Source: a virus
Lineage: Duplodnaviria; Caudoviricetes
IMG/VR virus record: IMGVR_UViG_3300004770_000001
Span: 1-52,133 of that record
Length of the DNA stretch: 52,133 nucleotides
Strand: one strand, 5' to 3'
The notes under the pieces were generated by a model, which searched no databases, was not told where the DNA came from, and was given only the letters and a program-made list of their open reading frames with translations. A program made the position numbers and the translations under genes. Positions 16,691 to 42,601 of the stretch are shown here, one piece after another (the stretch's first letter is position 1; each line of letters begins with the position of its first letter).

Positions 16691-16990
16691 ATGATAAAAT
16701 GGTTTAAAAAAGTATTAGCGATGCTCATTCGCTACCATTTAGCCGGGAAGGGTTATCAGTTCATTGAACCTTCCTTAGTAAAGGTTACACCAAGCTTAGT
16801 TTACAAAGGAAAAATTGCGCCTGCAGGAAAGGTTTTCTATATAGCATCACTTAAATATCGTGGCGTTTATTTTCATAAAGATGTAGCTATTGAAAGAAAA
16901 GACATCAGTCCGGCTGACGAAAAGAAACTGATTAGGTTATGCCAGGTGAAATTTGTTAGAGGTATTGAAAAACGAATCAATAAAGCATGA
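16691..16990 (+). CDS. Hypothetical basic protein
   Basis: ORF coupled to the glycosyltransferase gene. Confidence 0.6.
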   Translation: MIKWFKKVLAMLIRYHLAGKGYQFIEPSLVKVTPSLVYKGKIAPAGKVFYIASLKYRGVYFHKDVAIERKDISPADEKKLIRLCQVKFVRGIEKRINKA

Positions 16991-18891: not shown

Positions 18892-18894
18892 GCC

Positions 18895-21971: not shown

Positions 21972-22409
21972 ATGAGCGCAAAAAAAGAAAAGGGTAAAGA
22001 CCTCATCGTCTATATTAATGGCGTTGCGGTACTTTACGACGAATCCAGCACAATTAATTTCACTGCAAAAACAGCCGATACAACCAGCCGGGCATCACAA
22101 GACGCTAACGGTACTATCTGGGAGGAAGCAGTTCCTATTTCAATCGGTATAAAGATAACTGGTAGCGGATTTTTGGTTAATGATAATCCTTCAGGCGGTG
22201 CCGCTGTTTATTCGTCAGGCCGTTTATATACTGCCCTTGCTAATCAAACTCTGGTTTATGCTACATGGAAAAGCCAGGACGGTTTATTCTTATATGGTTG
22301 CGATTGCTTCGTAATGGATCTTAAAGTAACTGCAACTGTTAAAGATGTAGCGAAATATGACTATACGCTGCAAGGTAACGGTGTTGTGAGCTTAGTTCCA
22401 GTTAGCTAA
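21972..22409 (+). CDS. Major tail tube protein
   Basis: KGKDL, DTTS, C-terminal Y.YTLQGNG; upstream of the chaperones. Confidence 0.8.
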   Translation: MSAKKEKGKDLIVYINGVAVLYDESSTINFTAKTADTTSRASQDANGTIWEEAVPISIGIKITGSGFLVNDNPSGGAAVYSSGRLYTALANQTLVYATWKSQDGLFLYGCDCFVMDLKVTATVKDVAKYDYTLQGNGVVSLVPVS

Positions 22410-22816: not shown

Positions 22817-23151
22817 AAATAAACTGGCGTAGTATCTGCGAGTTTGCGCTCGGTGATGTAGGACTACGAAAACATGAGTTTCTTTCTATGACATGGTATG
22901 AATATACCGTTTTACTCGGTGGGCATATCAAAAGAAGTGTAAAAGAATGGGAGCATTCCCGGTTTATCGCTTATTATACCTATTGGGCTAACAGCGATGA
23001 AAACCGTGATAAAATAACAGATTTCCTGCCATTAGTAACTGATCCTGAACCAGAAGCGGCTAAAGAGTTAAGCCAGGATGAAAAGGATAGGATTTTTGCA
23101 GAAATAAAAATAAGGGAAGAAGCATTTAAACAGATCAAAAATGGCGGGTGA
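22813..23151 (+). CDS. Tail assembly chaperone gpT-like part (frameshift extension)
   Basis: -1 frame reads VEINWRSICEFALGDVGLRKHEFLSMTWYEY..., a typical GL...EF..MT..E motif. Confidence 0.75.
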   Translation, partial: VEINWRSICEFALGDVGLRKHEFLSMTWYEYTVLLGGHIKRSVKEWEHSRFIAYYTYWANSDENRDKITDFLPLVTDPEPEAAKELSQDEKDRIFAEIKIREEAFKQIKNGG

Positions 23152-25075
23152 AGATTTAAGGCTCACCATTGGGGCCGACATAGATGCTTATCAAAACGGC
23201 TTAAAACAGGCCGGACAACTCACACAGAATTTTAGTAATGATGTATCACGTTCATTAGCTGGGGCAGCAGCATCAACAGATGCTTTAGGCGGCTCAGCAA
23301 TGTCAGCGTCGATGAAGTTTTATACCATGCGTTCGGGCGTAAGTGCTGCCCGTGATGGTGTAATGGCTTTTACTTTAGGTGGTCAAGCGGCAGAACGTTC
23401 CTTGCTTGCAATGGGTCACCACATCACAAGCTTAGTAAACGAAACCGGAAGTTTTAAAGGCGCTTTAGGTGCTTTAGCTTCGTCGCTTTGGGGTCCGGGT
23501 GGTTTAATATTGGGTATTACTCTTGCGGTTGAATTATTTGATAAATTCGGTTCATCTTCAAAGGGTGCCGCTCAATCATCAGCCGAATATATTGATAGTT
23601 TAGATGCAATAACTCAGGCTACAATAAAAGGCAAAGAATCAGGCGAGCAGGAAATAACCCGGTTAAAAATTCTTTACGATGCTACTCAAAACCATACACT
23701 TTCTTTACGGGATCGGAATAAAGCATACGATGAACTCGAAAAGAAATATCCTAATTGGTTTAGTAATGCCGAAAGAGAAAAGACGCTGTTAGGAGAAAAC
23801 AAGAAGGCTTATGATGATTTGTCAAAAGCTATACTTGCTTCTGCTTTGGCTAAAGCTTATGAAGATCAAATAGGTAAAAATGCCGAACGCGAATTTGCTA
23901 ATCAGAATAAAATAACTGACTTATCTAAGCAAAGGGATCAGGCTCAAGGGAGTTACAACAGCCAACTTTCAAGCCTTAAAAAAACATATCCTGGTATTCC
24001 CGAAAGTGAATTAAAAACCCTATACGGCCCGGCTTTGGTCGGTGACATGCAAAAGGTCGCAAGTTTGCAAAAGCAAATAAACGACCTGCAAACTGATAGC
24101 GGATTAATCACTAAGCAAAATCTTGAATTACAGAATTTAGCTACAAATAATGAAGTAAAAGCTGGATTTAGCACAAATCCCGGTGGCGATACTAATAAAA
24201 ATACCGATGCTGTAACGGGGCTTGATTTATTAAAGCAAAAACAGCAAGAGTTTAAAACTGCTTTGGATGATGCTGTAGCTGACAATAAGCCGGCGGAATA
24301 CATCAAAAACCTTGCTATTCAGTACACTGCATTAAGCGAAAAAATCAGCGAGGTTGAACAGAAAATTGCAAACTCTCAGGTAATTGGTGGTGGTGCCGCT
24401 CCTCTTACAGCAGTAGGCACGAAAGCTACGACTATAAACGGGAAAGATGATAATCAATTATCAACAGATAAGCTAACTGGCGACGATATAGCTAAAATGG
24501 CTAAAGCCTATGAAGATTATGTTCATTGGCTAAATATGGCACACCAAAGCAATGCCGACCTTAAAAAAGATAATGCAGAAGAAAATTTAGCATTTAAAGA
24601 ACTTTCAAAAACGGTAGGTCAGGGATTGGTTGGTGCTTTTGAAGCCGCGATGCAAGGAACTCAAAGCTTTGTTCAGGCAATGGGTCAATTTCTTGAAAAG
24701 TTAATTGAAAAGTTAATTGCGGCGGCAGCGGCAGCAGCAGTTGTAGCTGTTTTAATGACCGTTATTTCAGGCGGTTCGTTTTCAGCAGAATTTGCTTCAT
24801 CATTTGGTCAGTTAAGTGGGTTAACGGGCGTAATAGGGTCATTGGGCGGCACAGCAACATCAAGTTTACCACAACACGCAAACGGTGGTATTGCTACATC
24901 TGCATCAATAGGAATATTCGGTGAAGCAGGGCCAGAAGCATTGATTCCATTAAACCGAATGAATGAATTTACAGGTGGTGGCGGTGGAAATATGGAAGTT
25001 ACGCACCGGGTATCGGGATCTGATTTGCTTTTAGTTATTAATCGTGCAACAAAAACACAAGGCCGTAAATCATAA
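23141..25075 (+). CDS. Tape measure protein
   Basis: Ala/Gly-rich helical protein after the chaperones; C-terminal HANGGI...GEAGPEA.IPL. Confidence 0.88.
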   Translation: MAGEDLRLTIGADIDAYQNGLKQAGQLTQNFSNDVSRSLAGAAASTDALGGSAMSASMKFYTMRSGVSAARDGVMAFTLGGQAAERSLLAMGHHITSLVNETGSFKGALGALASSLWGPGGLILGITLAVELFDKFGSSSKGAAQSSAEYIDSLDAITQATIKGKESGEQEITRLKILYDATQNHTLSLRDRNKAYDELEKKYPNWFSNAEREKTLLGENKKAYDDLSKAILASALAKAYEDQIGKNAEREFANQNKITDLSKQRDQAQGSYNSQLSSLKKTYPGIPESELKTLYGPALVGDMQKVASLQKQINDLQTDSGLITKQNLELQNLATNNEVKAGFSTNPGGDTNKNTDAVTGLDLLKQKQQEFKTALDDAVADNKPAEYIKNLAIQYTALSEKISEVEQKIANSQVIGGGAAPLTAVGTKATTINGKDDNQLSTDKLTGDDIAKMAKAYEDYVHWLNMAHQSNADLKKDNAEENLAFKELSKTVGQGLVGAFEAAMQGTQSFVQAMGQFLEKLIEKLIAAAAAAAVVAVLMTVISGGSFSAEFASSFGQLSGLTGVIGSLGGTATSSLPQHANGGIATSASIGIFGEAGPEALIPLNRMNEFTGGGGGNMEVTHRVSGSDLLLVINRATKTQGRKS

Positions 25076-27684
25076 TGGTTACATTATACACCTTTAGAAA
25101 AAGTAATTATTTATACACGGTTTACCGGGATGATACTAACTATGCCCTTGTAAATTACTATTCTACTTATTCGCCGGGCGTTGACAGCCAGCCGCCAGCT
25201 AATACTACTATTTCAGTAGTTTGCGTGCCGGGTACCTACGATCAATATTCCTACAAAACTCAAACTGCCGTTCCTTATGTTTACATTGACATAAACCATG
25301 ATGCTGCGGAATGCGGATACGTGCCGCCAGCTTGTGACGTTGCTATTTCAAGTTTTACAAAAAGCGATCAGACTGCAACGGGCGTAAATGACGGCAGCGC
25401 AAATTTATTTTGTACTTCCTCATCGCCTCCAATAACTTACTACTTATACACATCAGCGGATGTTTTAGTAACTCAAAATACTACCGGGTTATTTACAGGC
25501 CTTGCGCCAGGTGATTACTACATCAAAGCTTATGATACTCGTTTGTGTTATCAGATTCAAACCTTTACTATTTTAGCTTATGATGAAACATCGCAAACGC
25601 ATTGGAAATATCGTTTAGATTTCACAAGTTTAGACGGCCTTACAAGCTGGGAATTGAGGCTTATAGATGTTTTCCATAATTACGATAATACAGTTTACCC
25701 GATTGACATAACAGGGCAAGATGAGCCTATCGTCAAAAAAGTAGCAGATCCAAACGAAGATAAAACGACTTCAATAATATGCACAACGCTGGATATAAAC
25801 CTTGAATATACCGGAAACGATTTTACTATTGAAGAATTTATAGTTCCTGAGCAAAGCTGGAAAGTTGAATTATATAAAGATGGCGTTTTGGACTTTCAAG
25901 GCTGGATTTTGCCGGACGAAACGCAAAACTATTATTCAGATGCCCCCTATGCAGTTACCCTGACAGCTACCGACGGACTGGCAAGCTTAAAGGGCAATCT
26001 TTGGGGAGATGGTTCGGGCGGTCAGGGTTATGGATCGTATCAAATCGCGCAATACGGCTTTACTTCATGGGCGCTTCTTGTTAAACAGTGCTTAGATCAG
26101 TTAGGCTACGATTACGGTAGCACAACTATAATTTCATCGCTTCAATTTGCCGGAACTTATGATGTAAATCTATGGGTTGAAATAGGCATGTGGAGTGATA
26201 TTCTTTACGATTCGTCAGGCATTCCTACCGATACCTATTCTGCATTAGGCTTGCTTTTGGGAGGCTTAAAATTAAGTATCGTCCAGCATAAAGGCTATTT
26301 TGTTTTATTCAATAGTAACGACCTTTTTTATTTAAACAAATCTGCAAGGTCGGCAGACTTTGAAAATGCAGTTTATCAATTAGGCCCGACATTTGAGAAT
26401 ATTGCGGAAACTGGTACAGCGGTAGAGCAACCATTAAATCAATTAATTGGCAAAGATTATCCCGGCATACCAATTAATCCCCCACAAGGTATAAATTACG
26501 ATAAAGCTTATAATATTAAAGAAAGAGTAGATTTTAACTCTTTGGCGTTGCTTTTTACTAATCCGAGTTTTGAAGTTGGCGCCGTTCAGGGTAATTTGCC
26601 ACCTGAATTTCAATTTTATGGACCCACACCCACACCGGCTTATTGTAATTACGACCCAGTAATACCAGGAGTCACAAATTCAGGAGCATTTGACGGTGTA
26701 TGGGAATTACAAACCGAATGGCATACAGCATCAGGAGTCAATGCTCCAGCATTTGGAAGTCAGGCTCAGCTTATTAATCCAATAGTTATTGATCAGCCTT
26801 TGGTTGGTATCAATCTGTCATATCAATGGCGAGGTAATACACCATTTAATTCATATATAAAAATTGGCCCATCAGTAGCTTTAATATTTACCGAAACATC
26901 AACAGGTCTAACATGGTGGTGGAATAATAGGCCAACTCCCGGCCCTGCTTGGAAACCATTTACATCGGAATCCGATATAGGTGCTTTATATGTTGGTGAT
27001 GATGCAACTGATAATAGATGGCACAATTTTACGGTTCAAACAGCATCATTGCCAAATAGTGGAATTGGAACTATTCAAATTATGATAAATGGCCCTGGTT
27101 ACGTTTATACAACCGGCCATGAGCTTCCAGCAGGAACACTAATTTCTGTATCTATTGATGACTTAAATATTACCCAGTACAGTACAATAGTTTCATCAGT
27201 AAATCAAGTAGCTGAAATACATCAGACTGCTAAAGTAGTGGAATTACCAAATTCAAACATTAAAAATCCGAATCTAAATCTTTTTACTTTCCCCACAAAC
27301 AAACGTTGTGCAGGAAATATATTCTATTGCCCGGATATTAGCATTAATTATGCTTCGGGTATCGTTGCTAATACTTGGAATTTCGCTTTGAAAGTTGCTG
27401 ACCCATCAGATAGACTACCTGCGACAATCACAAGGGCATACGCTCGAAACTATGCCCGGCAAATGCTAAAATGGGAAGGTGACGTTAAAACAAACTACCT
27501 GCAATTTTACGGAACGTTCCAAGTCGAATACTTTGATAGTAAAGTTTTTTTAGCATTTTCTATTGAAAGCAAGCTTAGATCAGGCATTCATCATGTGGTA
27601 TTAATCGAGATTGACGATTCCGATGCTCAAAACGTTTACACCTATACACCTGTATATGAGAACAGCGCGAGAACGCTTCAATAG
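25075..27684 (+). CDS. Tail tip/hub protein with N-terminal SprB-like repeat
   Basis: Follows TMP; F.GWI.P...VTLTATDGLASLK motif; SprB-like unit at 25333-25548. Confidence 0.7.
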   Translation: MVTLYTFRKSNYLYTVYRDDTNYALVNYYSTYSPGVDSQPPANTTISVVCVPGTYDQYSYKTQTAVPYVYIDINHDAAECGYVPPACDVAISSFTKSDQTATGVNDGSANLFCTSSSPPITYYLYTSADVLVTQNTTGLFTGLAPGDYYIKAYDTRLCYQIQTFTILAYDETSQTHWKYRLDFTSLDGLTSWELRLIDVFHNYDNTVYPIDITGQDEPIVKKVADPNEDKTTSIICTTLDINLEYTGNDFTIEEFIVPEQSWKVELYKDGVLDFQGWILPDETQNYYSDAPYAVTLTATDGLASLKGNLWGDGSGGQGYGSYQIAQYGFTSWALLVKQCLDQLGYDYGSTTIISSLQFAGTYDVNLWVEIGMWSDILYDSSGIPTDTYSALGLLLGGLKLSIVQHKGYFVLFNSNDLFYLNKSARSADFENAVYQLGPTFENIAETGTAVEQPLNQLIGKDYPGIPINPPQGINYDKAYNIKERVDFNSLALLFTNPSFEVGAVQGNLPPEFQFYGPTPTPAYCNYDPVIPGVTNSGAFDGVWELQTEWHTASGVNAPAFGSQAQLINPIVIDQPLVGINLSYQWRGNTPFNSYIKIGPSVALIFTETSTGLTWWWNNRPTPGPAWKPFTSESDIGALYVGDDATDNRWHNFTVQTASLPNSGIGTIQIMINGPGYVYTTGHELPAGTLISVSIDDLNITQYSTIVSSVNQVAEIHQTAKVVELPNSNIKNPNLNLFTFPTNKRCAGNIFYCPDISINYASGIVANTWNFALKVADPSDRLPATITRAYARNYARQMLKWEGDVKTNYLQFYGTFQVEYFDSKVFLAFSIESKLRSGIHHVVLIEIDDSDAQNVYTYTPVYENSARTLQ

Positions 27685-27688
27685 TTCT

Positions 27689-27707
27689 TTGCAGTTTTGC
27701 AACACGA
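27689..27707 (+). promoter_or_regulatory. Structural-gene upstream motif copy 4 (before second tube-like gene and fibre genes)
   Basis: TTGCA-GTTTT-GCAACACGA. Confidence 0.75.
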
Positions 27708-27766: not shown

Positions 27767-28444
27767 ATGGCAATAAAGGGTAAGGATTTAATATTAAGTC
27801 TATCCGTTAATGGAGTTGTCAAGCCTTTTTTATATTGTAAGACCTGTACGCTCACCCAAACTGCCGATGTGTTAGAAACGACCACACGCGGATCGGGCAG
27901 CGCACGTTCATACGATTATAATAGAACGTCTTACAAAATCCAGCTTACGAGTCTTGCTGATTTGTTAGATGTAACTTATTCAAGCCTTTATTTACAAAAC
28001 TGCCTGAATAATAGGATTAAGGTAACTTGGAGTTTTAAACTCGATTACACAACTTATTATAGCGGTAGTGCTTTAGTTACATCAGCAGCTATTGATTCGC
28101 CAAACGATGGTGTTTCGACGTTTACGGGGGAGTTAACAGGTGATGGCGCTATCGCTATCGCTGCAACCATTCCTCCAGTAGCAGAAAATTACAATTATAT
28201 CCGGGCGCTTTATGGTGATCCTCGATTCAGCACAAACGGTTTAGGTCAGGTAGTATTTACTGATCCTGCATTGAAAGGATTTACAGGATATCCAATTTTT
28301 GCAACTCAGCTATCTACTTATTTCACTTTAGCAAACATAAGCTACGATTCGGTAGATGGTAGCTTTACTATTCTTTCGGATGGCTTTAGTTTATTAAGCG
28401 GATACGATTTGATCATTTATCCATACCAGGTTCAAGAAACATAA
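27767..28444 (+). CDS. Second tail-tube-like protein with C-terminal extra domain
   Basis: IKGKDL...ETTT...YSGSALVTS...TFTGELTGDG, paralogous to 21972-22409. Confidence 0.7.
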   Translation: MAIKGKDLILSLSVNGVVKPFLYCKTCTLTQTADVLETTTRGSGSARSYDYNRTSYKIQLTSLADLLDVTYSSLYLQNCLNNRIKVTWSFKLDYTTYYSGSALVTSAAIDSPNDGVSTFTGELTGDGAIAIAATIPPVAENYNYIRALYGDPRFSTNGLGQVVFTDPALKGFTGYPIFATQLSTYFTLANISYDSVDGSFTILSDGFSLLSGYDLIIYPYQVQET

Positions 28445-28448: not shown

Positions 28449-31400
28449 ATGAAAAGGCTTTTATTAATAGTTACCATTATATCAGCATTTGTTACAGCGT
28501 CTTTTGCTCAGACAAAGCCAGTAGCAACCCGTACACCCGATGGCCCTCAGTTTATCGGGGACGCGAATTTAAAAGCAACAAAATATTTAATAGTACCCAT
28601 TTCAAGTGTTACGGGAATAACAGGCGGTACGGTTGATAGTGCAGGATACATCCGATACAATCCATCTACTAAAAACTTTGAGGGTTATTATGGCCCGGTT
28701 CATGGCTGGGGCGCTATTGGTGCTGCATCAGGAAATATTGTAGCAAAAGCCGATAGTAATACTTTTCCTGGTTACGTTACCCGTACAGCTTTAAAAGATT
28801 CATTAGCGAATAACACCCTAATATTTTCAAGACGGTTTAAAAACGTTTCAGGAACGGTTGATTTAGCTATCGGTGACAGTTCGGCCACATCCACAAATAA
28901 CAAACTTGTATTCAAAAATAATAACGGTGATTTAGTCACTCCTAACATCGTGTATGCTGCCGGAAGTACAAATACTATTACTTATACCGGAATGAAAATA
29001 GTTGCTTCAGGTGGGCTGCAAATACCTACCGGAGCAAGTTCAGGGTATGTTTTAACAAGCGATGGATCAGGGAATGCTTCATGGTCGGCAGGTGGAACAA
29101 CCAATATCTATAACCATAACGGCACATTAACAGGTAACAGATATTTTAACGGTGGGTTTCATCAATTGCACCTTGATTCATTGTCCGGGTATTATCAAAG
29201 TGTTGCAGGTACCGACGCTTTGGGAGAAGAAGATGCAACTACTTCATTCTATGGCAATACTAATACTATAAGTTTTTCTTATTGGGGTGGTGATTATTAC
29301 GCATTTTCATCTTCGGATGACGGCACAGGAAATTCAACAATGAACCTTTCGCATCAGCAAGGTTCAAGCTATGAATCCTTTTCGTTTGACAATAATAACA
29401 CAGGTATAAAAGTAATCGATCAATTGGGCGGTTATGGATTAGTTGCTTCAACAGGTGTTGACAGTACCAAAATGGGAACAGGTTCGGCTACTTACGCTAC
29501 AGGAAAATGGGTAATAAACCGAATAAAAAATTATTTTACGGCAGTTGGTGGGGCTACAAGTCAATCAGTAACTTTTAATAACAGCGGTTCAGGTGCTTCG
29601 TCAGGTGCTTTTTTTAACGGTACGGCAGCCAAAACAATTAGCTATAACACAATCGGTGCGCAAGCGGCTTTGAGTGGAACAGGTTTCGTAAAGATTTCAG
29701 GTTCTACGATTAGCTATGATAATTCGACCTATCTAACAACGGCGGCTGCAAGTTCAACCTATCAGCTTGCTTCAAACATCGAAACAACATTAACAAATTC
29801 CACTTATTTATATCCATCAGGAAGCGCAGTCACGGCGGCAATAGCGGCTATTTCAGTACCAACAGGAGCAAACCCGACAGGATCAGCCGGTTTGACTGCC
29901 GTTAACGGTTCTGCAACCACTTTTATGCGCAGTGATGCTGCACCTGCCATTAACCAGGGGATTGCGCCAACATGGACGTCGCAACATAATTATCAGCTTA
30001 ACTCACTCGGTACAACAATCGCGGCATCAAACGCTTCAATTTTTGTAGCCAATACAACAGCAGCCACTTCGGGAACTCAGCAATATTCGCCACTTATTGG
30101 GTGGCAAGCTCAATACTATAATACGACGGCATCTGCATCAAGATCGGTAGCGGCTTATTGGGGGCTTCAATCGCAATCGGGCACTGGATATGCTTACTTA
30201 GCAATGTACGCTTCTATAGATGGTGGTACACCTGCTTATAATGGCGTTGAAATAAGTTTGACAGGCTCTATGATTGCTGGGGCTTATACTTCAAGCAGTA
30301 CGTTTACAACAGCAAATAATGGTATAGGTGTTACTTCTACGGACGGCTATATTATGGCTAACGCCACAGCAGCGACAAACTCACTGGCTCAATGGTCGCG
30401 CAGATCACGGCAAAGCTCATTTTATTGGACTGGATCTACATCAAATCAGGCAGAAGCAACAGAGGAATTGCAAACCACTACCTCAAATACTGCTCAATAT
30501 GTTATTTCAGGGCGTACAGGTGGTTCAGGCTCATTCAATCCATACTTCGGCATAAGTGTAATCAACGGCAACTGGAGCTTAAACGGAACGGCTGGCACGA
30601 CCGGGCAAGTTCCGTCAAGTACAGGTTCGGGAATGCAATGGATAACTCCGATATCTTTAACAAGCCTATCCGCAACAACTCCTTTATCATACAATAACAC
30701 TACAGGTGCTTTTACCATTCAGCAAGCAAGCGGAAGTCAACCGGGTTATTTAGCATCAGCAGACTGGACGACTTTTAATGGCAAACAAGCCGCACTTTCA
30801 GGAACTGGATTTGTTAAAATATCGGGTACGACAATAAGTTATGACAACTCAACTTATTTAACTACCACAACTGCGGCTTCGACATATAGCCCGATTGCAG
30901 GTAGTTCGTCAATCGTTACGGTGGGTTCGCTTACATCAGGATCTATCCCTTATTCACTTTTAAGCGGAACGGTTCCGACATGGAATCAGAATACCACAGG
31001 AACGGCAGCCAATATAACAGCCACATCAAATAGCACCTTAACGACATTATCGGCTTTATCGCTGCCTTATTCACAAATTACAGGCACACCGTCATTATCG
31101 GGTTATATTCCCTATACTGGCGCGACTGGTAACGTGACGCTGGGTAGCTATTCAATCACTGCTTCACAATTCTTAGCTGGCACACTCGGCTATACAGATA
31201 CGGGCATTTTAGGGGCTTTGCAAAGCTCTGTCAATGGGTACAATCAATTCATTATCCAAAACACAAACACAGGATCGTCAGCATCGGCAAATTTAGTATT
31301 GAATAACAGCGCAAGTAGCGCAACGAATTACTACGGTGAAACGGGTATTAATGGCGTTAACTTTTCAAACGGTTCAGGGTCTTTAAACGGGCCGGGTAAC

Positions 31401-31823
31401 GTTTACTTTGATGCAGTTGGTGAAGATATAGTTGTAGGAACTTTCTCAAACAATGCAATTCACCTGGTTGCAAATAATAACGCCACAGACGCAATAACCA
31501 TATCAGGTTCAAATGCTATTTCATTCCCTCAATTAAGCACCAACGGACTATTAAAAACAAGCGGGGGCACTGGGGCTGTAAGTGTTGCGGTGGCTGGAAC
31601 TGATTATGTTTTAGCATCAAACTTTGTTACATCAGAAGTGCCATCCGGAACTATCAACGGTAGCAATACCAGCTTTACGCTTGCCAACACTCCGGTAACG
31701 GGAACTATCAGGCTATTTAGAAACGGAGTAAGAACTACAGCATTTACTGCGTCAGGTAGCACAATCACCATGAGCGCAGCACCATTAACAGGGGATACAC
31801 TTTTAGTTGATTATCAAAAATAA
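28449..31823 (+). CDS. Ser/Thr/Gly-rich tail-fibre-like protein with Sec signal peptide
   Basis: MKRLLLIVTIISAFVTASFA/Q; IRYNP...FEGY, ADWTTFNGKQAAL and internal duplicated repeats typical of phage fibres. Confidence 0.7.
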   Translation: MKRLLLIVTIISAFVTASFAQTKPVATRTPDGPQFIGDANLKATKYLIVPISSVTGITGGTVDSAGYIRYNPSTKNFEGYYGPVHGWGAIGAASGNIVAKADSNTFPGYVTRTALKDSLANNTLIFSRRFKNVSGTVDLAIGDSSATSTNNKLVFKNNNGDLVTPNIVYAAGSTNTITYTGMKIVASGGLQIPTGASSGYVLTSDGSGNASWSAGGTTNIYNHNGTLTGNRYFNGGFHQLHLDSLSGYYQSVAGTDALGEEDATTSFYGNTNTISFSYWGGDYYAFSSSDDGTGNSTMNLSHQQGSSYESFSFDNNNTGIKVIDQLGGYGLVASTGVDSTKMGTGSATYATGKWVINRIKNYFTAVGGATSQSVTFNNSGSGASSGAFFNGTAAKTISYNTIGAQAALSGTGFVKISGSTISYDNSTYLTTAAASSTYQLASNIETTLTNSTYLYPSGSAVTAAIAAISVPTGANPTGSAGLTAVNGSATTFMRSDAAPAINQGIAPTWTSQHNYQLNSLGTTIAASNASIFVANTTAATSGTQQYSPLIGWQAQYYNTTASASRSVAAYWGLQSQSGTGYAYLAMYASIDGGTPAYNGVEISLTGSMIAGAYTSSSTFTTANNGIGVTSTDGYIMANATAATNSLAQWSRRSRQSSFYWTGSTSNQAEATEELQTTTSNTAQYVISGRTGGSGSFNPYFGISVINGNWSLNGTAGTTGQVPSSTGSGMQWITPISLTSLSATTPLSYNNTTGAFTIQQASGSQPGYLASADWTTFNGKQAALSGTGFVKISGTTISYDNSTYLTTTTAASTYSPIAGSSSIVTVGSLTSGSIPYSLLSGTVPTWNQNTTGTAANITATSNSTLTTLSALSLPYSQITGTPSLSGYIPYTGATGNVTLGSYSITASQFLAGTLGYTDTGILGALQSSVNGYNQFIIQNTNTGSSASANLVLNNSASSATNYYGETGINGVNFSNGSGSLNGPGNVYFDAVGEDIVVGTFSNNAIHLVANNNATDAITISGSNAISFPQLSTNGLLKTSGGTGAVSVAVAGTDYVLASNFVTSEVPSGTINGSNTSFTLANTPVTGTIRLFRNGVRTTAFTASGSTITMSAAPLTGDTLLVDYQK

Positions 31824-31824
31824 T

Positions 31825-34800
31825 ATGAAACGGATACTATTTTTTATTGCTTTTTTATTTGCATCAACTTTTGCTTTTGGGCAGGCAGGCAACATTGTAG
31901 CTGGGCAGGTAAATACTTCTGCCTACACGCCGTTGGATACGGGATATATTTCTTTAAACAAGCTCAAAGTAAATAGCACAATAGCTTATTTCGGTAACTC
32001 CATATCTGCAAGAGGCTTGGTGGGTGGTGAGCCTACATCAAAGCCTACCTATTGGAGTGCTTTGGGGTATGCGACATGGACACAACAATTAACCAATTAT
32101 AAGCTATTTGCGCCTCGTTTTTCAGACTCTTTGGCAATATCCGGGCAGACTACTACGCAAATGCTTGCAAGGCTTGGCGCGGCTTTAAATTACAAATTGG
32201 ACGTTGTTGTTATTGAGGCCGGAACAAACGATATAGCAACAGGTGCATCATCACAGACAATAATCGACAACCTGCAAAATATAGTTAATGGATTTGTGGC
32301 AAACGGAACACGGGTTTATATCCTAACCGTAATGAAAAGATGGTCGCCAGCGACTTTTACAAGCGGACAGGAAACAATAAGACAGGCGGTAAATACAGCG
32401 ATACTTGGCATGGCTACCACAATGGTAACGCCGATAAATCTTGAAAATGCGATGAATAGTTCAACCCTTTTCGGGTCGGATGGTATTCATCCAACATCAA
32501 CAGGTGCTTATACTATTGCTACTTTATTAGCTCCCAAAATTCAAACTTATTTACCGACAAATATCAGCATAACTGATAATATCGGCAGCGATAATAACTT
32601 GGTAACAAATGGTAACTTACTTGCAGGTACTTCGGGAACGACCACAAGTGCAAGCGGTACGGTGGTATCAAACTTTAATCTGAATGGTACTAATGCAGGG
32701 GGTGGTACAATTACAGGATCAGTCACAAATGCCAATAATGCCAATCAACAGGTTATTACTTTATCCGGAACGTACACTTATTCAGCATCAAATGGGTGCA
32801 GTCTTTATAGTGGATTGGTTGCAGCTTCAAATCTTTATGTTAACGATGAATTGGAGGGGTATGTTGATTTTGAAATCACCACTCCTTTAACCAACGTACA
32901 GGCTATTTACTTACAAAATGGTATTTATGATGGTAGTTCAACTTTATTGGCATCGGGCTATACCAACTATTATGCAGGTGATAATCCGATATATCCTTTG
33001 GGTAATGGCAGGTATCAAATGAGAACGCCACCTATCACAATTACAACAGGCACACCGACACAGATTGACGCAAAAATTACCATTTTATTTAATGAAGCAT
33101 CAGGGTCATTGGGCGGTGTTGTAAGGATTTGGAAAGTAGGTTTAAGAAAGATTGTCAATAAATCATACGCTACACAATTTCCGGGACTCAATACCAACGG
33201 TATTTTACACCTATATGGTGGAAACGGAACGGCTTATAGCGCGCCACTTAGTTCAGGTGACTTACCTGCGGGTGTTGCTTTCCTTGCATCGGCACAAACC
33301 TTTACAGGGTTAAACCAGTTCAACGTTACTAACACGGCTACATCTGGCAGCCAATATGGCTTTCAAATTAACCCTACATATAACCAGGCATCGGGAACGG
33401 GAACAAATACCGACCTTTTAATTAACCGAACGGAAACGGCTATAATGTCGGGGACTCAGTTATTAGAGGATTTACAGGTAGGCGGTACTTCTAAATTTAG
33501 TGTTTCAAGAACAGGGGTTGTAACGGCAGCAAATACAATAACTACGCCAACGATTCAAACACCGGCGGTAACAACCGCATTAGGCTCTAACTCATCGTTA
33601 ATTTCGTTGGGCGCAAATGGTACATCGGTGGTAAGGAATATTAGCGATGCAAATTCGGCGTTTTTTGTAAATAATAAACTGGGAACTGGTGATATTCAAG
33701 ATTGGCAGTTTGCTACATCAAACGTAGCTACAATGGGTTATAATGGTAAGTTTACTTTGAATGGTAGTATAAGCGCATCATCGAGCCTTGCACAGGGTAT
33801 ATTTGCTAACCATACCCTAACAGCAGTAGCAAATAATGACGTTTTGGTTGAGGGTGATTTTAACCCAACCATTGCGGGTGTAGGTATCATATCAACTTTG
33901 GGGTCGGTGACAGGCGGTTCATCTTATACCAACGGAACTTACACTAACGTTCCCTTAACAGGTGGTAACGGTTCAGGCGCACAGGCAACGGTAGTTGTTT
34001 CAGGCGGTGCTGTTTCGACGGTGACAATAACCACAGCCGGAACAAGGTATGTTGTGGGTGATATTCTTTCCGCAGCAGCAGCAAATATTGGTGGTACAGG
34101 TTCGGGATTTAGCGTCCCGGTAGCAACATTAACCCAAACGGTAACAGGTGCGGTTTTAAGGGCTACTGTAAGCAATATTGGTCAGGGTAGTGGTTCGTCA
34201 GGTTCATGGTCAGATGGATTGCTGATGTTAAACTCTACAGCAGCAACAGCTACACTAACTCAAAACGCGCCGGGAATACATTTTTCATCTTACGGATGGA
34301 ATACAGGTTCATCAGCATCACAAGTTTTTGATAGCTATATAGTAAGTTCAGCGCAAACAGGTGCAACATCACCGGGGGGTAATATTGGTTTTATATTCTA
34401 CCAAAACGGCACTAAATCTGGAACGTCATTTGCTTTTGCCCCGTCACTTGCTTCGTTCACATCAGCACAGCTACAATTAACCCACTCCGCACAAGGCGCA
34501 ACGGTATTTACAAGTTTGGCCCTATTAAACACAACAGCATCAACAGTAGGTACACCTAACCAATGGACTAACCAATATTATCAGGAGGGAACTGTCTGGA
34601 ATACGGGCGGAACACCCGCGAATAACCCATTTGCTTTTGGTTTAATTGGTGAGGGTACATCAAGTGCTAACCCTTACGCATCATGGTATTTTCAGACTTA
34701 TTTAGGCACAAGCAATACCCCGACATTTGTGAATATGGCATCATTTACCACGCAAGGGCAGTTTAACTTAGCATTAGCTAATAGCAACGTTCAGGCAGGA

Positions 34801-35544
34801 TCACAGGCGGGTACAATCTTTAACATCGCTGCATCAACGGTAACAGATAACTCCACAGCATCGGGTACAGTAACAAATTTCGCGGTTATCGGAACAGGTC
34901 TAACCACATTAGCAGCAACCAACGCAAGTATTACTTATACCAATGGGTACGGTGCTTTCTTTACACAGCCAACAAACGGCACTAACGTAACCATGACGAA
35001 TAAATATGCTTTAGGTCTTGCTTACGATGCTACCCACTTAGCTACGTTCGCTGTAAGTTCGGCAGGTTTACTTACAATTAACGCCACAAGTACAATAACA
35101 ATAACCCCCGCAACAACATTTAGTACTACAGTTTCAGGGCCGACAGCATCGACGTTAACAAATACAACCCAATTAGCCACTACAGCATACGTTATAAACA
35201 ACGTTCTTACAAAGAGAACCGCACAGGCTATAAACGCCACAGCGACCGCTACAGCAGCGCAAATGGCAGCAGGGTACATTACGTCAACATCAGCAGCAGC
35301 GACTACCATAACTTTTCAAACGGCAACGGCTTATGCAACAGGCTTGGGTGCAGCAGCAGGGTCGACGGCAGATTTATACATAGACAATACAGCAGGTGCA
35401 AATACGGTGACAATAGTGTTAGGCTCAGGTATGACAGGCGTAAATAGCCCATCATTAACGGTTTCTACGGGTGCATCGGGAATTGCCCTATATCACTTTA
35501 CATTTTCGTCAACATCAGCTTGTACAGTAGTAAGATTACAATAA
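31825..35544 (+). CDS. Fibre/spike-like protein with signal peptide and SGNH (GDSL) hydrolase domain
   Basis: MKRILFFIAFLFASTFAFG/Q; FGNSI, SGQTT, GTND, DGIHP; NTTQLATTAYV fibre motif. Confidence 0.75.
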   Translation: MKRILFFIAFLFASTFAFGQAGNIVAGQVNTSAYTPLDTGYISLNKLKVNSTIAYFGNSISARGLVGGEPTSKPTYWSALGYATWTQQLTNYKLFAPRFSDSLAISGQTTTQMLARLGAALNYKLDVVVIEAGTNDIATGASSQTIIDNLQNIVNGFVANGTRVYILTVMKRWSPATFTSGQETIRQAVNTAILGMATTMVTPINLENAMNSSTLFGSDGIHPTSTGAYTIATLLAPKIQTYLPTNISITDNIGSDNNLVTNGNLLAGTSGTTTSASGTVVSNFNLNGTNAGGGTITGSVTNANNANQQVITLSGTYTYSASNGCSLYSGLVAASNLYVNDELEGYVDFEITTPLTNVQAIYLQNGIYDGSSTLLASGYTNYYAGDNPIYPLGNGRYQMRTPPITITTGTPTQIDAKITILFNEASGSLGGVVRIWKVGLRKIVNKSYATQFPGLNTNGILHLYGGNGTAYSAPLSSGDLPAGVAFLASAQTFTGLNQFNVTNTATSGSQYGFQINPTYNQASGTGTNTDLLINRTETAIMSGTQLLEDLQVGGTSKFSVSRTGVVTAANTITTPTIQTPAVTTALGSNSSLISLGANGTSVVRNISDANSAFFVNNKLGTGDIQDWQFATSNVATMGYNGKFTLNGSISASSSLAQGIFANHTLTAVANNDVLVEGDFNPTIAGVGIISTLGSVTGGSSYTNGTYTNVPLTGGNGSGAQATVVVSGGAVSTVTITTAGTRYVVGDILSAAAANIGGTGSGFSVPVATLTQTVTGAVLRATVSNIGQGSGSSGSWSDGLLMLNSTAATATLTQNAPGIHFSSYGWNTGSSASQVFDSYIVSSAQTGATSPGGNIGFIFYQNGTKSGTSFAFAPSLASFTSAQLQLTHSAQGATVFTSLALLNTTASTVGTPNQWTNQYYQEGTVWNTGGTPANNPFAFGLIGEGTSSANPYASWYFQTYLGTSNTPTFVNMASFTTQGQFNLALANSNVQAGSQAGTIFNIAASTVTDNSTASGTVTNFAVIGTGLTTLAATNASITYTNGYGAFFTQPTNGTNVTMTNKYALGLAYDATHLATFAVSSAGLLTINATSTITITPATTFSTTVSGPTASTLTNTTQLATTAYVINNVLTKRTAQAINATATATAAQMAAGYITSTSAAATTITFQTATAYATGLGAAAGSTADLYIDNTAGANTVTIVLGSGMTGVNSPSLTVSTGASGIALYHFTFSSTSACTVVRLQ

Positions 35545-37037
35545 TGAAACGCATACTAATCATATTATTCCTACTATACAGCTTTGCGGCATCAGCTCAA
35601 TATTGCGGGCCATATACAGCGCATTCCAACATCAGCGAATCGGGACATAGTTACGAAACGATACGGGGCGATTCAATAAATTGCGGAAGTTCTGCCGGGA
35701 TTTACCTTTATAACAGTCACGATATTCATATCACTAAGTGTAAATTCGTGAATGGCACAAGTAGTGCAGGTGTTGGCATTTACCTTTTAGGGTGTTATAA
35801 TATAACTATTGATAGCTGTTTTTTTAGCGGGACTGCATCCGGTTGCTATGCGCAACTTTGTACAGGTGGTATAGTATTTCAATACAATCATGACCTTAAC
35901 GAAGTTGGCCCATTACCTAGAGGGCAAATGATTCAGCTTAATACTTGCTCAGGATCAGGCAATATTATTCAGTACAACATTAGCCAGTCATTTCCGGGTG
36001 TTGGCAACTACGAAGATCACATTAACCTATATAAATCAAACGGTACATCAGGTAGTTATATAACTGTAAAATATAACACCATTTACGGCGGTGGACCGTC
36101 GACAACGGGGTCAGGAATTACGGTCGCGGATGGAGGCGGCAGTTACCAGGATATTGAATATAATACCGTAATAAATCCCGGTTACATCGGTATGCAAGCC
36201 GCTGGAGGTACTTATATCAACATCAGCAACAACACAATCTATTCAAAACAAACTACGGTATCTCATTTGGGTCTAGGATACGGAAATTATAGCGGTTCAC
36301 CATCGAATAACGTTGTGATGGGATACAACCGAATTAAATTTATAAATAGTTCAGGATCTGAAGCTGATACTGCACACCATTATTCAGCCGGGACTTATCA
36401 GGTATCAACGCCAATTAACTGGACTACAAACACCGTAAATGCTTCAATAGATAGCACCATTGTAAGTTTCCCCTTATGGGCCGCTTGTATTCTAAGCCCA
36501 GTAATAAGTTATACTGCCCCATCGGCTTTAACTTATGGATCAGCAATGGCAACTCTAACACCGACAAATACGGGCGGCATCGCAGCAAGTTTTACTATTA
36601 CACCGTCTTTGCCATCAGGTTTAAGTTTTAATACTTCTACGGGCGTTTTTAGCGGCACTCCATCGGCAGTTATTTCGGCTACATCTTATACCGTAACGGC
36701 AACAAATACGGCAGGAAGCGGAACGGCATCTGTTTCACTAACAGTAAATAAAGCGCCATTATCAATTTATGCAAATAGCCTGTCAAAAGTACAAGGAACG
36801 GCTAACCCGACTTTAACAGCAAGCTATTCAGGTTTTGTTTTGGGTGATACGCCGTCATCATTAACAACCCTGCCAACATTAAGCACAGCAGCGACCACAA
36901 GCTCACCCGTCGGCACTTATTCGATTACAGCCAGCGGAGCAGCTTCGTCAAATTATACCATTAGTTATTATTCAGGTACTCTGACTATATACAGCGCACT
37001 TTTAAAGCATCACAAGTTTAAAATCTTAACACATTAA
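35544..37037 (+). CDS. Signal-peptide protein with right-handed beta-helix, Ig-like (He_PIG) and MBG-like domains
   Basis: MKRILIILFLLYSFAASA/Q; GIYL/NI.I..N repeats; LPSGLSFNTSTGVFSGTP; KAPL...ANPTLT.SYSGFV.GD...VGTY.IT.SG...NY. Confidence 0.75.
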   Translation: MKRILIILFLLYSFAASAQYCGPYTAHSNISESGHSYETIRGDSINCGSSAGIYLYNSHDIHITKCKFVNGTSSAGVGIYLLGCYNITIDSCFFSGTASGCYAQLCTGGIVFQYNHDLNEVGPLPRGQMIQLNTCSGSGNIIQYNISQSFPGVGNYEDHINLYKSNGTSGSYITVKYNTIYGGGPSTTGSGITVADGGGSYQDIEYNTVINPGYIGMQAAGGTYINISNNTIYSKQTTVSHLGLGYGNYSGSPSNNVVMGYNRIKFINSSGSEADTAHHYSAGTYQVSTPINWTTNTVNASIDSTIVSFPLWAACILSPVISYTAPSALTYGSAMATLTPTNTGGIAASFTITPSLPSGLSFNTSTGVFSGTPSAVISATSYTVTATNTAGSGTASVSLTVNKAPLSIYANSLSKVQGTANPTLTASYSGFVLGDTPSSLTTLPTLSTAATTSSPVGTYSITASGAASSNYTISYYSGTLTIYSALLKHHKFKILTH

Positions 37038-37043: not shown

Positions 37044-37376
37044 ATGACACAGGTTCAATCTATCGAAGCCCTAACATCAGAGGTAAAACATTTAGTAAAT
37101 ATGTTTAGCGATCACGCTAAAAAACTGGAAGAAGTTCATGTTAAAGTTTCCGAGATTCAATACGACATCAACGGAACAAACAATACTGAGGGCTTCGGTG
37201 AGCGTCTTAAAAATATTGAAAAATGGAAAGAAGAAACTCATGTCAAATTGCAGAAAGATGATGTAGAGGATAGCACTCAAAAATCAATACTTGATAGTGC
37301 ATGGTTTAAAGCAGGGATAGCAATTTCAGCAATAGCGAATATTGTAACTATCATAATGATGGTTATTAAAAAATAA
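37044..37376 (+). CDS. Coiled-coil protein with C-terminal transmembrane helix (lysis-associated, XhlA-like?)
   Basis: Heptad-like N-terminus; AGIAISAIANIVTIIMMVI tail. Confidence 0.6.
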   Translation: MTQVQSIEALTSEVKHLVNMFSDHAKKLEEVHVKVSEIQYDINGTNNTEGFGERLKNIEKWKEETHVKLQKDDVEDSTQKSILDSAWFKAGIAISAIANIVTIIMMVIKK

Positions 37377-38525: not shown

Positions 38526-38704
38526 GGATAGGTACAATTTGTACCCGGCCTTTTTTTGAGGTGTATTATTGGCACCTCAAGTGAATTATTGCCAAAATAT
38601 AGGAACTATCGACGAGTTGTCGACAGATTGTAGACAACTAAAATATACGTTTAAGCATATAATTTCAAATAAGCATAACAAATTATATCTATTCACATAT
38701 AATC

Positions 38705-39515: not shown

Positions 39516-39602
39516 GAACGGGTGCCGCAGATGGTTAGCGGACAGAGTAAACGACTGGCTTTAGTTGCTCTGTAGTCGTGGGTTCGACTCCCACCCCGTT
39601 AG
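39516..39602 (+). ncRNA. tRNA-like RNA with an elongated, bulged anticodon arm
   Basis: Acceptor AACGGG/CCCGTT, D arm CCGC-AGATGGTTA-GCGG, T arm GTGGG-TTCGACT-CCCAC; the anticodon stem CAGAG/CTCTG encloses 20 nt. Confidence 0.75.
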
Positions 39603-39619
39603 CTTATTTTAAACATTTT

Positions 39620-39988
39620 ATGGCAAATTCAAATCCTACCTTGTGGCAGCGTATTTCAAGCGAAACGCCTCCGTTTTGGTTAAAAGTTCAAAAGATATGC
39701 CTTGCTTTGGCGGCAGTTGTTTCTTACCTGGCATTGCAGAAATTGATACCCGCGGAAATAACCGACACGGTTTATAAAGTGTGTTTAGGTTGTGCTGGCC
39801 TTTCTCAGTTTGCTGTTACCGATATTGGTATGGTAAACGGCGCTGTCAACAATCCGTTATCTGCATTGTCTGATTTATCAACCATTAAATCACAAGTTGG
39901 TGCTATTCATCAGCAAGTAGTAGCTCCGGCAAAGCCTGAAACTATTGATAGTGTAATTGAAAAGGTTGCGGACATAAACGCTCAATAA
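39620..39988 (+). CDS. Putative holin
   Basis: WQRI.SETP.FW.KVQK then two hydrophobic helices; TAATG-coupled to the lysin. Confidence 0.7.
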   Translation: MANSNPTLWQRISSETPPFWLKVQKICLALAAVVSYLALQKLIPAEITDTVYKVCLGCAGLSQFAVTDIGMVNGAVNNPLSALSDLSTIKSQVGAIHQQVVAPAKPETIDSVIEKVADINAQ

Positions 39989-40623
39989 TGGCAGGTTACA
40001 TTAAAGGCGTTGATATTAGCCATCAAAACGATGGCTTTAATTTCGACCATTTAGACCCGGAAGTAAAGTTTATTTATCTGAAAGCTACTCAGGGCGCAAA
40101 GTTTCAAGATCCAGCATTTCAGGCCAACTGGAAAGCTGCAAGGGATAAAGGCTTATTGCATGGCGCCTATCACTTTTTGACAGCGACTGACAGCGTAAAT
40201 GATCAGGTAGATAATTTCCTTTCACGTGGCGTGGATTGGAGTTTGCCGAACGTATTGCCGCCGATGCTCGATGTTGAGGACCAGGTACCGGCAGCGTTAA
40301 ATGCAAACATCACCAAAAACAAACCAGCTTTTATAAAGCTCGTTACCGATTGGATTAACATCGTTGAGGCTGAAACTAAGCGCAAGGTTGTTATCTATTC
40401 CTATAAGAACTTTTTTAACGATTATTTGAATAGCCAAAGTTGGCCTAATAATCCACTTTGGCTCGCATCATATCAGCCAACACCTCCGGGATTGCCTCAC
40501 GGATGGAATGATTGGACTTTTTGGCAATATAGCCAATATGGTACAATGGCAGGAGGTGTAAAGGGTGGCAGTCTTGATCTTGATTATTTCAACGGCACCA
40601 TTGAACAACTGGCAGCACTTTAA
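39988..40623 (+). CDS. GH25 muramidase endolysin
   Basis: GVDISHQN, LKATQG, GAYHF, LDVE, LWLA.Y, FWQYS, DLD. Confidence 0.93.
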   Translation: MAGYIKGVDISHQNDGFNFDHLDPEVKFIYLKATQGAKFQDPAFQANWKAARDKGLLHGAYHFLTATDSVNDQVDNFLSRGVDWSLPNVLPPMLDVEDQVPAALNANITKNKPAFIKLVTDWINIVEAETKRKVVIYSYKNFFNDYLNSQSWPNNPLWLASYQPTPPGLPHGWNDWTFWQYSQYGTMAGGVKGGSLDLDYFNGTIEQLAAL

Positions 40624-41385: not shown

Positions 41386-41697
41386 ATGAAAAAAGTAATA
41401 TTAGCTATCGTTTTAATCTGTTCGATTTCGACCATTTTAAAAGCACAAACCAAAGCAAAGGCCGACACCTCAAAGCCAAAGTATAATTACTTTGTGACGG
41501 TGCCAATTAACGACTATCAGCAAATCGTAAACTCGCTGAACGAGTATAAAAGACTTCAGATGTACGATCCAACCGCGAAGCCGGAGCAACAAGTTCAGCT
41601 ATTCAAAGGCATCGAGGCATATTTGAAAGAATTGCCTAACCGGGTTAAATTGGATAGTGTGTTGGCAAAGGGATCATCAATAGAAGGGGCTAAATAA
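41386..41697 (+). CDS. Secreted hypothetical protein
   Basis: MKKVILAIVLICSISTILKA/Q signal peptide. Confidence 0.7.
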   Translation: MKKVILAIVLICSISTILKAQTKAKADTSKPKYNYFVTVPINDYQQIVNSLNEYKRLQMYDPTAKPEQQVQLFKGIEAYLKELPNRVKLDSVLAKGSSIEGAK

Positions 41698-42035
41698 TGG
41701 AAAACATACGGCTTACGTCCAATGACGGTATTATTTGCGATAATCCTAACTGTGATTATAAAGACCCATCGGTGCAACTGGATGACGTAGGATTATGGCT
41801 AAATAAACCTTGCCCTAAATGCGGTGAAAACCTTTTAACTCAGGAAGATTACGATAACTTTAAAAAGGTTATTGCAATGGTTAAAATGTTAAATGCACTT
41901 ACACCGGAAGAATTAGCATTGCTTGGTAACACCGTTTACGATGGGAGCGAAATATCGGATAAAACTCCGGTTGTATTTAACGTCGGCACACACAAGGAAA
42001 TTTCATTGGAATTAGTTGAGGATAAAAAACCATGA
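41697..42035 (+). CDS. Zn-ribbon hypothetical protein
   Basis: CDNPNC...CPKC. Confidence 0.7.
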   Translation: MENIRLTSNDGIICDNPNCDYKDPSVQLDDVGLWLNKPCPKCGENLLTQEDYDNFKKVIAMVKMLNALTPEELALLGNTVYDGSEISDKTPVVFNVGTHKEISLELVEDKKP

Positions 42036-42601
42036 AAAAACTAATCTTCATTTTTTTTTCGCTTCTTGCTTCATGCGGTCAGGCTGCATTAGCCCAGCAA
42101 CAGGTCATTAAATATCCTGGTTATGTAAGCTATTGGAATCCGAAAACATTAATTCCTGACAGCGTTATCTGGACGGCTGCCCCTCATAAAAAAGTAGTTG
42201 GCAGGGCGGCTGGATTTCACGCGACCGGAGGCCGACCGAATTTATCAAAGGATTATGCTAAATCGGGTTATGACATAGGCCATAATTGCGACGCTTCGGA
42301 TGAAAATTCAAATAAAACCGACGAGTATAATTCATTCGATTTCTGTAATACATTCCCTCAGCGGCCCAACAATAACAGGCTTGTTTGGCTACAGCTTGAA
42401 AACTACACACGATCATTAAATCAACCTGTAAAAGTTAAAGTTTACTGGCAGGGGGTCAGCGGATATTTAAAACCGGATAATGTAGCAATCCCGACTTATA
42501 CTATTAAGGAATTACGCTACGCTGGAAAGTTTGAAAAGTACATAGTTCCGAATAACGATACCGTTTCACGGCACCCATTCACATATTATAAAGCGAAGTA
42601 G
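42032..42601 (+). CDS. Exported DNA/RNA non-specific endonuclease (NucA/Serratia-type)
   Basis: DY..SGYDIGH, N.FPQ...NR..W..LE...R; signal peptide with LASC lipobox or ALA/Q site. Confidence 0.85.
   Translation: MKKLIFIFFSLLASCGQAALAQQQVIKYPGYVSYWNPKTLIPDSVIWTAAPHKKVVGRAAGFHATGGRPNLSKDYAKSGYDIGHNCDASDENSNKTDEYNSFDFCNTFPQRPNNNRLVWLQLENYTRSLNQPVKVKVYWQGVSGYLKPDNVAIPTYTIKELRYAGKFEKYIVPNNDTVSRHPFTYYKAK

Follow-up and report, generated by a model that had tools for sequence, protein, structure and literature searches.

Predicted Sec signal peptides on three fibre-type proteins encoded behind the tail genes of a temperate Bacteroidota phage

The assembly of tailed phages is taught as a wholly cytoplasmic process and, to our knowledge, the known tail fibres lack signal peptides and are assembled in the cytoplasm. 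This raises the question why three consecutive genes built from fibre-type modules, located at positions 28,449 to 37,037 of the IMG/VR viral record IMGVR_UViG_3300004770_000001, should all begin with what looks like a signal for export. We analysed the whole record of 52,133 bases (the window), which has direct terminal repeats and is 100% complete by estimate. That the three gene products, here called A, B and C, are exported fibre-type proteins is a well-supported prediction from their sequences, and we regard them as proteins that descend from tail-fibre and depolymerase modules and are encoded in the late operon of a temperate siphovirus of Bacteroidota. The genes and the architecture of their products are as follows:

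28449–31823, plus strand: protein A, 1124 amino acids (aa); signal, conserved head domain of about 65–85 aa, fibre repeat modules, small C-terminal beta domain.
31807/31825–35544, plus strand: protein B, 1239 aa counted from the ATG; signal, SGNH/GDSL esterase domain directly behind it, fibre-like C-terminal part.
35520/35544–37037, plus strand: protein C, 497 aa counted from the ATG; signal, right-handed beta-helix directly behind it, then He_PIG and MBG immunoglobulin-like domains.

The N-termini of A, B and C alike start basic, go on to a core of strong hydrophobicity and have small residues at positions -3 and -1 and glutamine (Gln) at +1. An earlier inspection of the letters without database searches (the sequence-only reading) had taken them for canonical signals of the Bacteroidota signal peptidase I (SPI) with Gln at +1, and the open reading frame (ORF) translations agree with the N-termini as it had quoted them. 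Gln at +1 is the pattern of Bacteroidota SPI substrates according to the available parts of PMC5837995 and PMC10653852. The cleavage point is preceded by S-x-A in A, A-x-G in B and A-x-A in C; the signal of A comprises residues 1–20, with cleavage predicted before Gln21, and an AlphaFold2 model of A has a helix over residues 2–17. Signals were called with a rule-based heuristic that looks for a net-positive n-region, an uncharged hydrophobic core of about 8–15 residues and small residues at -3/-1, and on this scale the core hydropathies of A, B and C (3.35–3.94) are among the highest in the genome. Four further genes were flagged (at 5852, 41386, 42032 and, on the minus strand, 45007), as were, less strongly, the capsid gene and several antisense ORFs, which means that the heuristic is not free of false positives.

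None of the three proteins has an in-frame Met shortly behind the signal from which a cytoplasmic isoform could start. The c-regions of A, B and C contain no Cys, so that a lipobox Cys at +1 is absent, and Pfam and NCBIfam gave no match at E 0.01 in any of the three to the C-terminal sorting domain of the type IX secretion system (T9SS; TIGR04183/TIGR04131, PF18962). Routing of A–C through the T9SS or as lipoproteins was therefore rejected, the predicted destination is the periplasm until lysis, and display on the surface of a lysogen would have no recognisable route. Taken by itself, the export step for A–C is, as predicted from these features, highly probable.

Protein A has no match in Pfam, PHROG or NCBIfam and no relative in the PDB by sequence. 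A relative is encoded in 310 of 598 candidate IMG/VR stretches, which shows that the phage-fibre motifs noticed in A on first inspection are real; most of the 310 viral relatives match A at residues ~403–425 and 735–818. In the ESM Atlas, residues 21–400 lie nearest to viral tail-fibre-like clusters (0.91) and also near a cluster of T4 gp9/10-type connectors (0.89), both of which we treat as leads only. Together with a phrog_438 match in B (see below), the IMG/VR relatives and the ESM Atlas neighbours support the view that A and B are composed of phage fibre modules. AlphaFold2 predictions of A gave a mean pLDDT (predicted local distance difference test) of 32.5 for residues 1–420 (4 sequences) and of 53.8 for residues 1–120 (9 sequences), values too low for a fold to be read from either model.

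The head of A is accompanied by the signal wherever its N-terminus can be read. With mature A (residues 21–240) as query, HMMER was run exhaustively over 1.84 billion representatives and returned 125 hits at E 0.001 or better, about 120 of which match only the repeat at A ~170–235. The five with their best match on the head (P0004, P0005, P0006, P0035 and P0037) all have a hydrophobic N-terminus, then Gln, then the head, P0005 being apparently cut at its start. The head domain also occurs in a 174-aa protein of locus L087 and in a contig-end gene of locus L088. P0002 (839 aa) is A-like with a signal, and in P0001 (1923 aa) a single A-type N-terminus, made up of signal and head, precedes an SGNH domain and a C-terminal part like that of B, a fusion from which we take A and B to be one architecture in split or fused form. 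Eleven relatives read keep the Gln at +1; it follows the signal in A, the A-like protein of locus L002, P0001, P0002, P0004, P0005, P0006, P0035, P0037, the 174-aa protein of L087 and a 701-aa protein of locus L094. No signal-less homologue of the head was found, the exhaustive search of the 1.84 billion representatives included; the survey of homologues suggested by the sequence-only reading hence came out in favour of the signal, every readable relative of the head having a signal and then Gln. Because one head of ~65–85 aa is mounted on distal parts that vary from 80 to 1900 aa, its layout is that of an anchoring domain.

Scanning metagenomes with the head alignment gave nothing, and the same scan of viral contigs gave a single motif match, located at L085 664–1056 in a contig labelled as a giant-virus metagenome-assembled genome (MAG) and amounting to 43% over residues 38–91 of the alignment. 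The 701-aa protein of L094 is encoded in a bacterial genome (G128:C1:1377000-1396000), within a phage-like element of about 10 kb (~6050–16200) that has an endolysin and a replication protein and no capsid or terminase recognisable by PHROGs. A TTG start is required for this protein, which then has a signal, Gln, a head 36% identical to A residues 1–82, and hits to tail-protein PHROGs.

In B, residues 56–227 belong to PF13472 (E 2.7e-18, 67.6 bits against a cut-off of 32.9), and the SGNH blocks (Ser, Gly-x-Asn-Asp, Asp-x-x-His) are visible in the translation, identifying the domain as an SGNH/GDSL esterase. B further matches the lipase family phrog_6102 (E 2e-30) and, weakly, with residues 695–762, the baseplate wedge family phrog_438 (E 2.7e-5); its PDB matches by sequence are acetyl esterases (5b5l, E 3.4e-5). 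The beta-helix of C was likewise identified by its family match (residues 39–232, PF13229, E 5e-8, 33.2 bits against a cut-off of 25.9), followed by He_PIG (PF05345, E 1e-10) and MBG (PF18676, E 7.5e-22); C has no PDB match by sequence. Homologues of C that bear a signal were found in L002 (67% identity, with the C-terminus of C not conserved), in locus L070 and in the chromosome of a Mucilaginibacter MAG, which by sequence points to a Sphingobacteriia-like host. Gp052 of Cellulophaga phage phi17:2, 35% identical to C residues 9–297, has no signal and starts directly at the helix; it lies among fibre genes and is flanked by genes annotated "structural protein".

How widespread such signals are was surveyed in the 80 best loci that share the central module of A, where 74 fibre ORFs had a readable 5' end. 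A signal-like N-terminus was present on nine of these fibres (L002, L005, L032, L040, L041, L046, L064, L070 and L081) and absent from 65; L071–L073, with a hydrophobic start and no basic residue, were left out of the count. Where it could be read, the gene following the fibre was itself signal-bearing in 8 of the 9 loci with a signal-bearing fibre versus 9 of the 56 without one. After loci with identical N-termini had been dropped, the figures were 7/8 versus 5/43 (Fisher P 5e-5, a value that serves only as a guide because the loci are related). Signals are shared by a whole row of genes in the viral contig L002 (16.9 kb; its tail module is a different one), which encodes in succession an A-like (1006 aa), a B-like (867 aa), a 110-aa and a C-like (417 aa) protein, all four with a signal and then Gln. 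Six of the loci (L005, L032, L041, L064, L070 and L081) have no long fibre-like gene behind the tail tip other than the signal-bearing one, and the layout of a signal-bearing fibre behind tail genes recurs in these six and in L002. Homology to recognised tail fibres is clear for the signal-bearing protein of L041 (1336 aa), whose tip matches the tail fiber family phrog_5481 (E 9e-15) and 186 records of cultured phages, among them T5-like ltfA and the distal tail fibre of Thermus phage phiFa; it is preceded by a tail protein, a tape measure and two proteins of the baseplate hub. The small signal-bearing proteins encoded downstream in L041 (129 aa) and L070 (120 aa) are homologous to each other (E 7e-11). 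We conclude that the signal feature is real, conserved and recurrent.

A different arrangement was seen in L044, L051, L054, L058, L059 and L069, where a signal-less fibre is followed by a protein of 338–504 aa (109 aa in L054) with a signal and Gln at +1; signal-bearing and signal-less proteins can therefore mix in one fibre locus.

The surroundings of A–C are those of a tail module. PHROG and Pfam scans of the window identified a large terminase, portal, head protease and major capsid protein, a tail-terminator-like protein, a 145-aa major tail protein, a 644-aa tape-measure-like protein and an endolysin, as well as an integrase and repressors on the minus strand, and from this gene content the phage is temperate and siphovirus-like. 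No tRNA genes were found in the window. Among cultured phages there is no close relative at the nucleotide level, and neither nucleotide nor protein searches gave a near relative of A, of B or of the whole structural module, so that no existing virion proteome applies to them. The genes directly upstream of A are:

23141–27684, plus strand: a tape-measure-like protein (644 aa) and a distal tail protein (869 aa), both without signal peptide.
27767–28444, plus strand: a 225-aa protein without signal peptide; N-terminal half tail-tube-like, C-terminal ~90 aa a candidate adaptor for A.

The 644-aa protein matches phrog_30292/14295, and the 869-aa protein matches the virion structural family phrog_23570 (E 3e-8) and sits in viral clusters only in the ESM Atlas. 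A–C follow in tight packing behind these tape-measure and tip genes: 4 nucleotides (nt) separate the 225-aa gene from A and 1 nt separates A from B, B and C overlap by 1 nt, and the next gene starts 6 nt after C. The fibre position and translational coupling that the sequence-only reading had ascribed to the three genes are thus borne out by the ORF coordinates, whereas its "structural-gene motif at 27689" found no confirmation as a repeat: the 19-mer at 27685–27703 occurs once in the window.

The 225-aa protein is our candidate for a docking partner of A on the tail. Its residues 2–137 match the major tail protein family phrog_1407 (E 1e-19; Phage_tail_2 weakly). The window holds two paralogues of this family, at 21972–22409 and 27767–28444, the second being the one behind the tail tip gene and having the extra C-terminal domain. 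This C-domain is 42% identical to the C-terminal end of a 196-aa protein of L002 and 59% identical to P0128, and was found in four metagenome loci, the L002 contig counted among them. It is attached to differing carriers: a tube-like domain in the window, domains that look LysM-like to the eye in L002/L088 and in L087, and in locus L086 a protein of 635 aa. The gene directly downstream of the C-domain protein encodes a signal and the head in the window, in L002/L088 and in L087. L002 and L041 share a carrier domain (44% over 80 aa) and differ both in the C-domain and in the fibre head. Judged from these sequences, such co-travel of C-domain and head is what one expects of an adaptor, here without a signal, and the fibre end that it would hold. 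Scans of viral contigs with the 225-aa protein found nothing. Complex prediction of the 225-aa protein with A residues 21–120 scored 0.00 with the controls not folded, and speaks neither for nor against binding. A 95-aa protein upstream of the L094 fibre, considered as an adaptor for its likeness by eye, was dismissed (BLASTP E 1.2, hhalign probability 2%), and a comparison of upstream proteins and fibre heads in L070 and L081 for co-variation gave nothing significant.

Lysis genes and a further small exported protein lie downstream of A–C:

39578–40623, plus strand: lysis genes, coding for a membrane protein of 136 aa and a GH25-type endolysin of 211 aa.
41386–41697, plus strand: a small protein of 103 aa with a signal peptide by the rule-based scan and no family match.

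The endolysin matches phrog_291 (E 3e-36); the 136-aa protein, which has no family match, is presumably the holin, judging from its position only. The 103-aa protein is similar to the 110-aa protein that sits between the B-like and C-like genes of L002 (BLASTP, 41% over 58 aa, E 4e-7, mostly in the N-terminal part), and a 66% relative is found in locus L084; from these occurrences it is a candidate exported partner or chaperone.

On these grounds we tentatively propose, with belief and doubt nearly in balance, that A–C are exported and fold in the periplasm, and that A docks on the tail at lysis via the C-domain of the 225-aa protein. A, B and C would be translated as Sec/SPI precursors obeying the Q-rule, cross the inner membrane by Sec, be cut before Gln and fold in the periplasm beside small co-exported proteins. 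The lysis proteins (39578–40623 and neighbours) would then breach the inner membrane and the wall, so that tails meet the periplasmic pool. In the docking step, which we infer, the head of A would settle on the C-terminal domain of the tube-like tail protein, while B, a putative polysaccharide deacetylase, and C, a putative glycan-cleaving enzyme, might be carried along by A or work unattached on envelope and matrix. A broader version, which we hold with more doubt, is that a guild of Bacteroidota phages possesses a periplasmic arm of virion assembly, in which fibres, small partners and polysaccharide esterases would be exported, trimmed to Gln (pyroglutamate) and attached at lysis via matched head and adaptor domains.

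Several points weigh against this proposal. The proposed virion membership of A, B and C is read from their genes, the signal call comes from a rule-based heuristic, and no precedent for docking after lysis was found. In L086, the gene downstream of the C-domain protein has an unclear start and no significant head similarity (E 0.11). B and C lack the head or another anchor domain and carry their enzyme domain right behind the signal, as ordinary secreted enzymes do, and a signal-bearing C-like enzyme occurs in a non-phage neighbourhood of the Mucilaginibacter MAG chromosome. A DNA-repair-type exonuclease is encoded in the same operon as A–C, which makes the operon not purely structural. Lastly, no benefit of export was found, with neither sequons nor cysteines enriched.

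This last point concerns an idea of the sequence-only reading, a possible modification of the exported proteins in the periplasm, for which it had cited D-(S/T)-hydrophobic motifs and the Cys-richness of C. Observed and expected numbers of D-(S/T)-(A/I/L/V/M/T) sequons are 5 versus 3.8 in A, 1 versus 3.5 in B and 3 versus 1.1 in C (P 0.085). Eight distinct signal-bearing fibres together have 19 versus 28.0 expected, and 42 signal-less fibres have 179 versus 222.4. Signal-bearing and signal-less fibres are alike in cysteine content, and the Cys-richness of C is common to its signal-less phi17:2 homologue. The counts in A–C and in the eight signal-bearing fibres thus lend no support to modification as the purpose, and export for O-glycosylation or disulfide formation was set aside. 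The only tested protein with an excess of sequons is a 177-aa signal-peptide protein without family match at 5852–6385 (4 versus 0.7 expected, P 0.002). A methyltransferase (202 aa), a GT2 and DUF5672 protein (634 aa) and a GT4 glycosyltransferase (320 aa) are encoded at 15926–19857, between the capsid and tail genes, and might glycosylate virion proteins in the cytoplasm.

Foremost among the alternatives, though in our estimate rather unlikely, is that A–C are exported enzymes or adhesins outside the virion, descendants of fibre genes that no longer join the tail. Made late, B and C would strip or deacetylate envelope and matrix polysaccharide and A would bind it, with the outcome that progeny escape capsule, debris or biofilm, or that the receptors of the dying cell are destroyed. 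Such a role would fit the position of the enzyme domains directly behind the signals of B and C, the resemblance of the B esterase to carbohydrate acetyl esterases and the C-like secreted enzyme in a bacterial chromosome. The other exported proteins of the window would also suit a set of exit enzymes, among them a DNA/RNA non-specific endonuclease with a lipoprotein-type signal. Moreover, about 5% of prophage carbohydrate-active enzymes (CAZymes; 3261/64,678) bear signal peptides according to the available part of PMC13507307. However, A has no enzyme domain and, with a conserved N-terminal head on variable distal parts, is laid out like a fibre anchored to the virion; the head travels together with a domain of a tail protein that lacks a signal; and in the tail modules of several relatives the signal-bearing protein is the sole fibre candidate, in one case with a classical fibre tip. 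A role outside the virion hence suits B and C better than A.

The endonuclease just mentioned is encoded at 42032–42601, adjoining the lysis genes (PF01223, E 1e-12; lipobox-like Cys). Directly 3' of C, at 37044–37376, lies a gene for a coiled-coil protein of 110 aa that has a membrane segment at its C-terminus. In L002, a relative with 38% identity (12950–13291) sits after an endolysin-like gene, for which reason the window protein may be a lysis component.

It is improbable that A–C serve lysogenic conversion, that is, that they are expressed from the prophage and exported to alter the envelope or adhesion of the lysogen, or to exclude superinfecting phages by binding their tail tips in the periplasm. 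The phage is temperate, with its integrase and repressors, He_PIG and MBG domains are typical of bacterial surface proteins, and the authors of PMC10367356, in its available part, regard the Q-rule signal proteins of Porphyromonas gingivalis phages as host-modifying; the co-variation with a tail-tip domain is also compatible with an exclusion factor. Against this, the genes follow the tail genes and one another at spacings of 4, 1 and -1 nt, Pfam and NCBIfam reveal no outer-membrane or surface sorting signal, and proteins of 1100–1200 aa made of fibre modules are unlikely exclusion factors. Nor did scans, which are weak for Bacteroidota, reveal an excess of promoter- or terminator-like sites: sigma-70-like sites number 60 versus 55.3 expected, the Bacteroidota-type promoter pattern 4 versus 5.2 with none in 27–37 kb, and terminator-like sites in the window are overall at chance level. 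A promoter or terminator separate from the late operon, as would mark a moron, was not found for A–C. A terminator-like hairpin with a T run is located at 38531–38545, just 3' of the exonuclease gene that ends the operon of A, B and C.

Finally, that the N-terminal segments are non-working signals and that the proteins stay in the cytoplasm, uncleaved or otherwise processed, for ordinary tail assembly is very improbable: although the capsid protein is flagged weakly by the heuristic here, and capsid proteins are flagged by SignalP in the available part of PMC10367356, the full n/h/c layout in all three proteins and the Gln at +1 in the relatives are hard to explain without SPI cleavage, no nearby Met offers a cytoplasmic isoform, and neighbouring small genes bear the same signals.

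If Bacteroidota phages do export fibres, as our proposal of docking at lysis supposes, pipelines that predict receptor-binding proteins would miss such fibres, recombinant expression and host-range engineering would need the mature form starting with Gln, and the timing of lysis would become part of virion maturation. If A–C are instead free exit enzymes, they would form a class of late exported phage factors that is made from parts of fibres, recurs and has gone unrecognised.

Several known phage morons and lysis proteins (lambda Lom and Bor, T5 Llp, signal-arrest-release (SAR) endolysins, o-spanins) are Sec-exported, and some are encoded beside tail-fibre genes. These are small membrane proteins, lipoproteins or lysis proteins without fibre modules, and SAR domains are weakly hydrophobic and uncleaved, whereas the window proteins are 500–1240 aa long, consist of fibre and enzyme modules and have strongly hydrophobic signals that are predicted to be cleavable. 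B and C could count among the secreted CAZymes of prophages, of which a minority bears signals; as far as the available part of PMC13507307 tells, that survey left out tail fibres and structural proteins by design, and the window enzymes differ in being fused to fibre modules and located in a tail operon. The phages of P. gingivalis likewise encode SPI substrates with Gln at +1 in a Bacteroidota host: five Q-rule signal proteins were left without an assigned function and read as host-modifying (Matrishin et al. 2023, PMC10367356, as far as available). They are not tied to tail fibres there ("tail fiber" occurs 0 times in the main text) and are compared here by description only. A full-text literature search found no report of signal-bearing tail fibres, and in the available part of PMC6199706 the lack of signal peptides is used as an argument for the phage origin of diversity-generating retroelement targets, as opposed to their being surface proteins of bacteria. 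With classical fibres and tailspikes, such as the L-shaped T5 fibre LtfA and tailspikes with SGNH-esterase or beta-helix domains, the window proteins share the position behind tape measure and tail tip. They also share the modular build of a conserved N-terminal and a variable distal part, the esterase and beta-helix domains, the small gene after the fibre, and sequence modules that are common to hundreds of phage fibres. Unlike classical fibres, the precursors encoded in the window and the small proteins next to them carry a Sec/SPI signal with Gln at +1.

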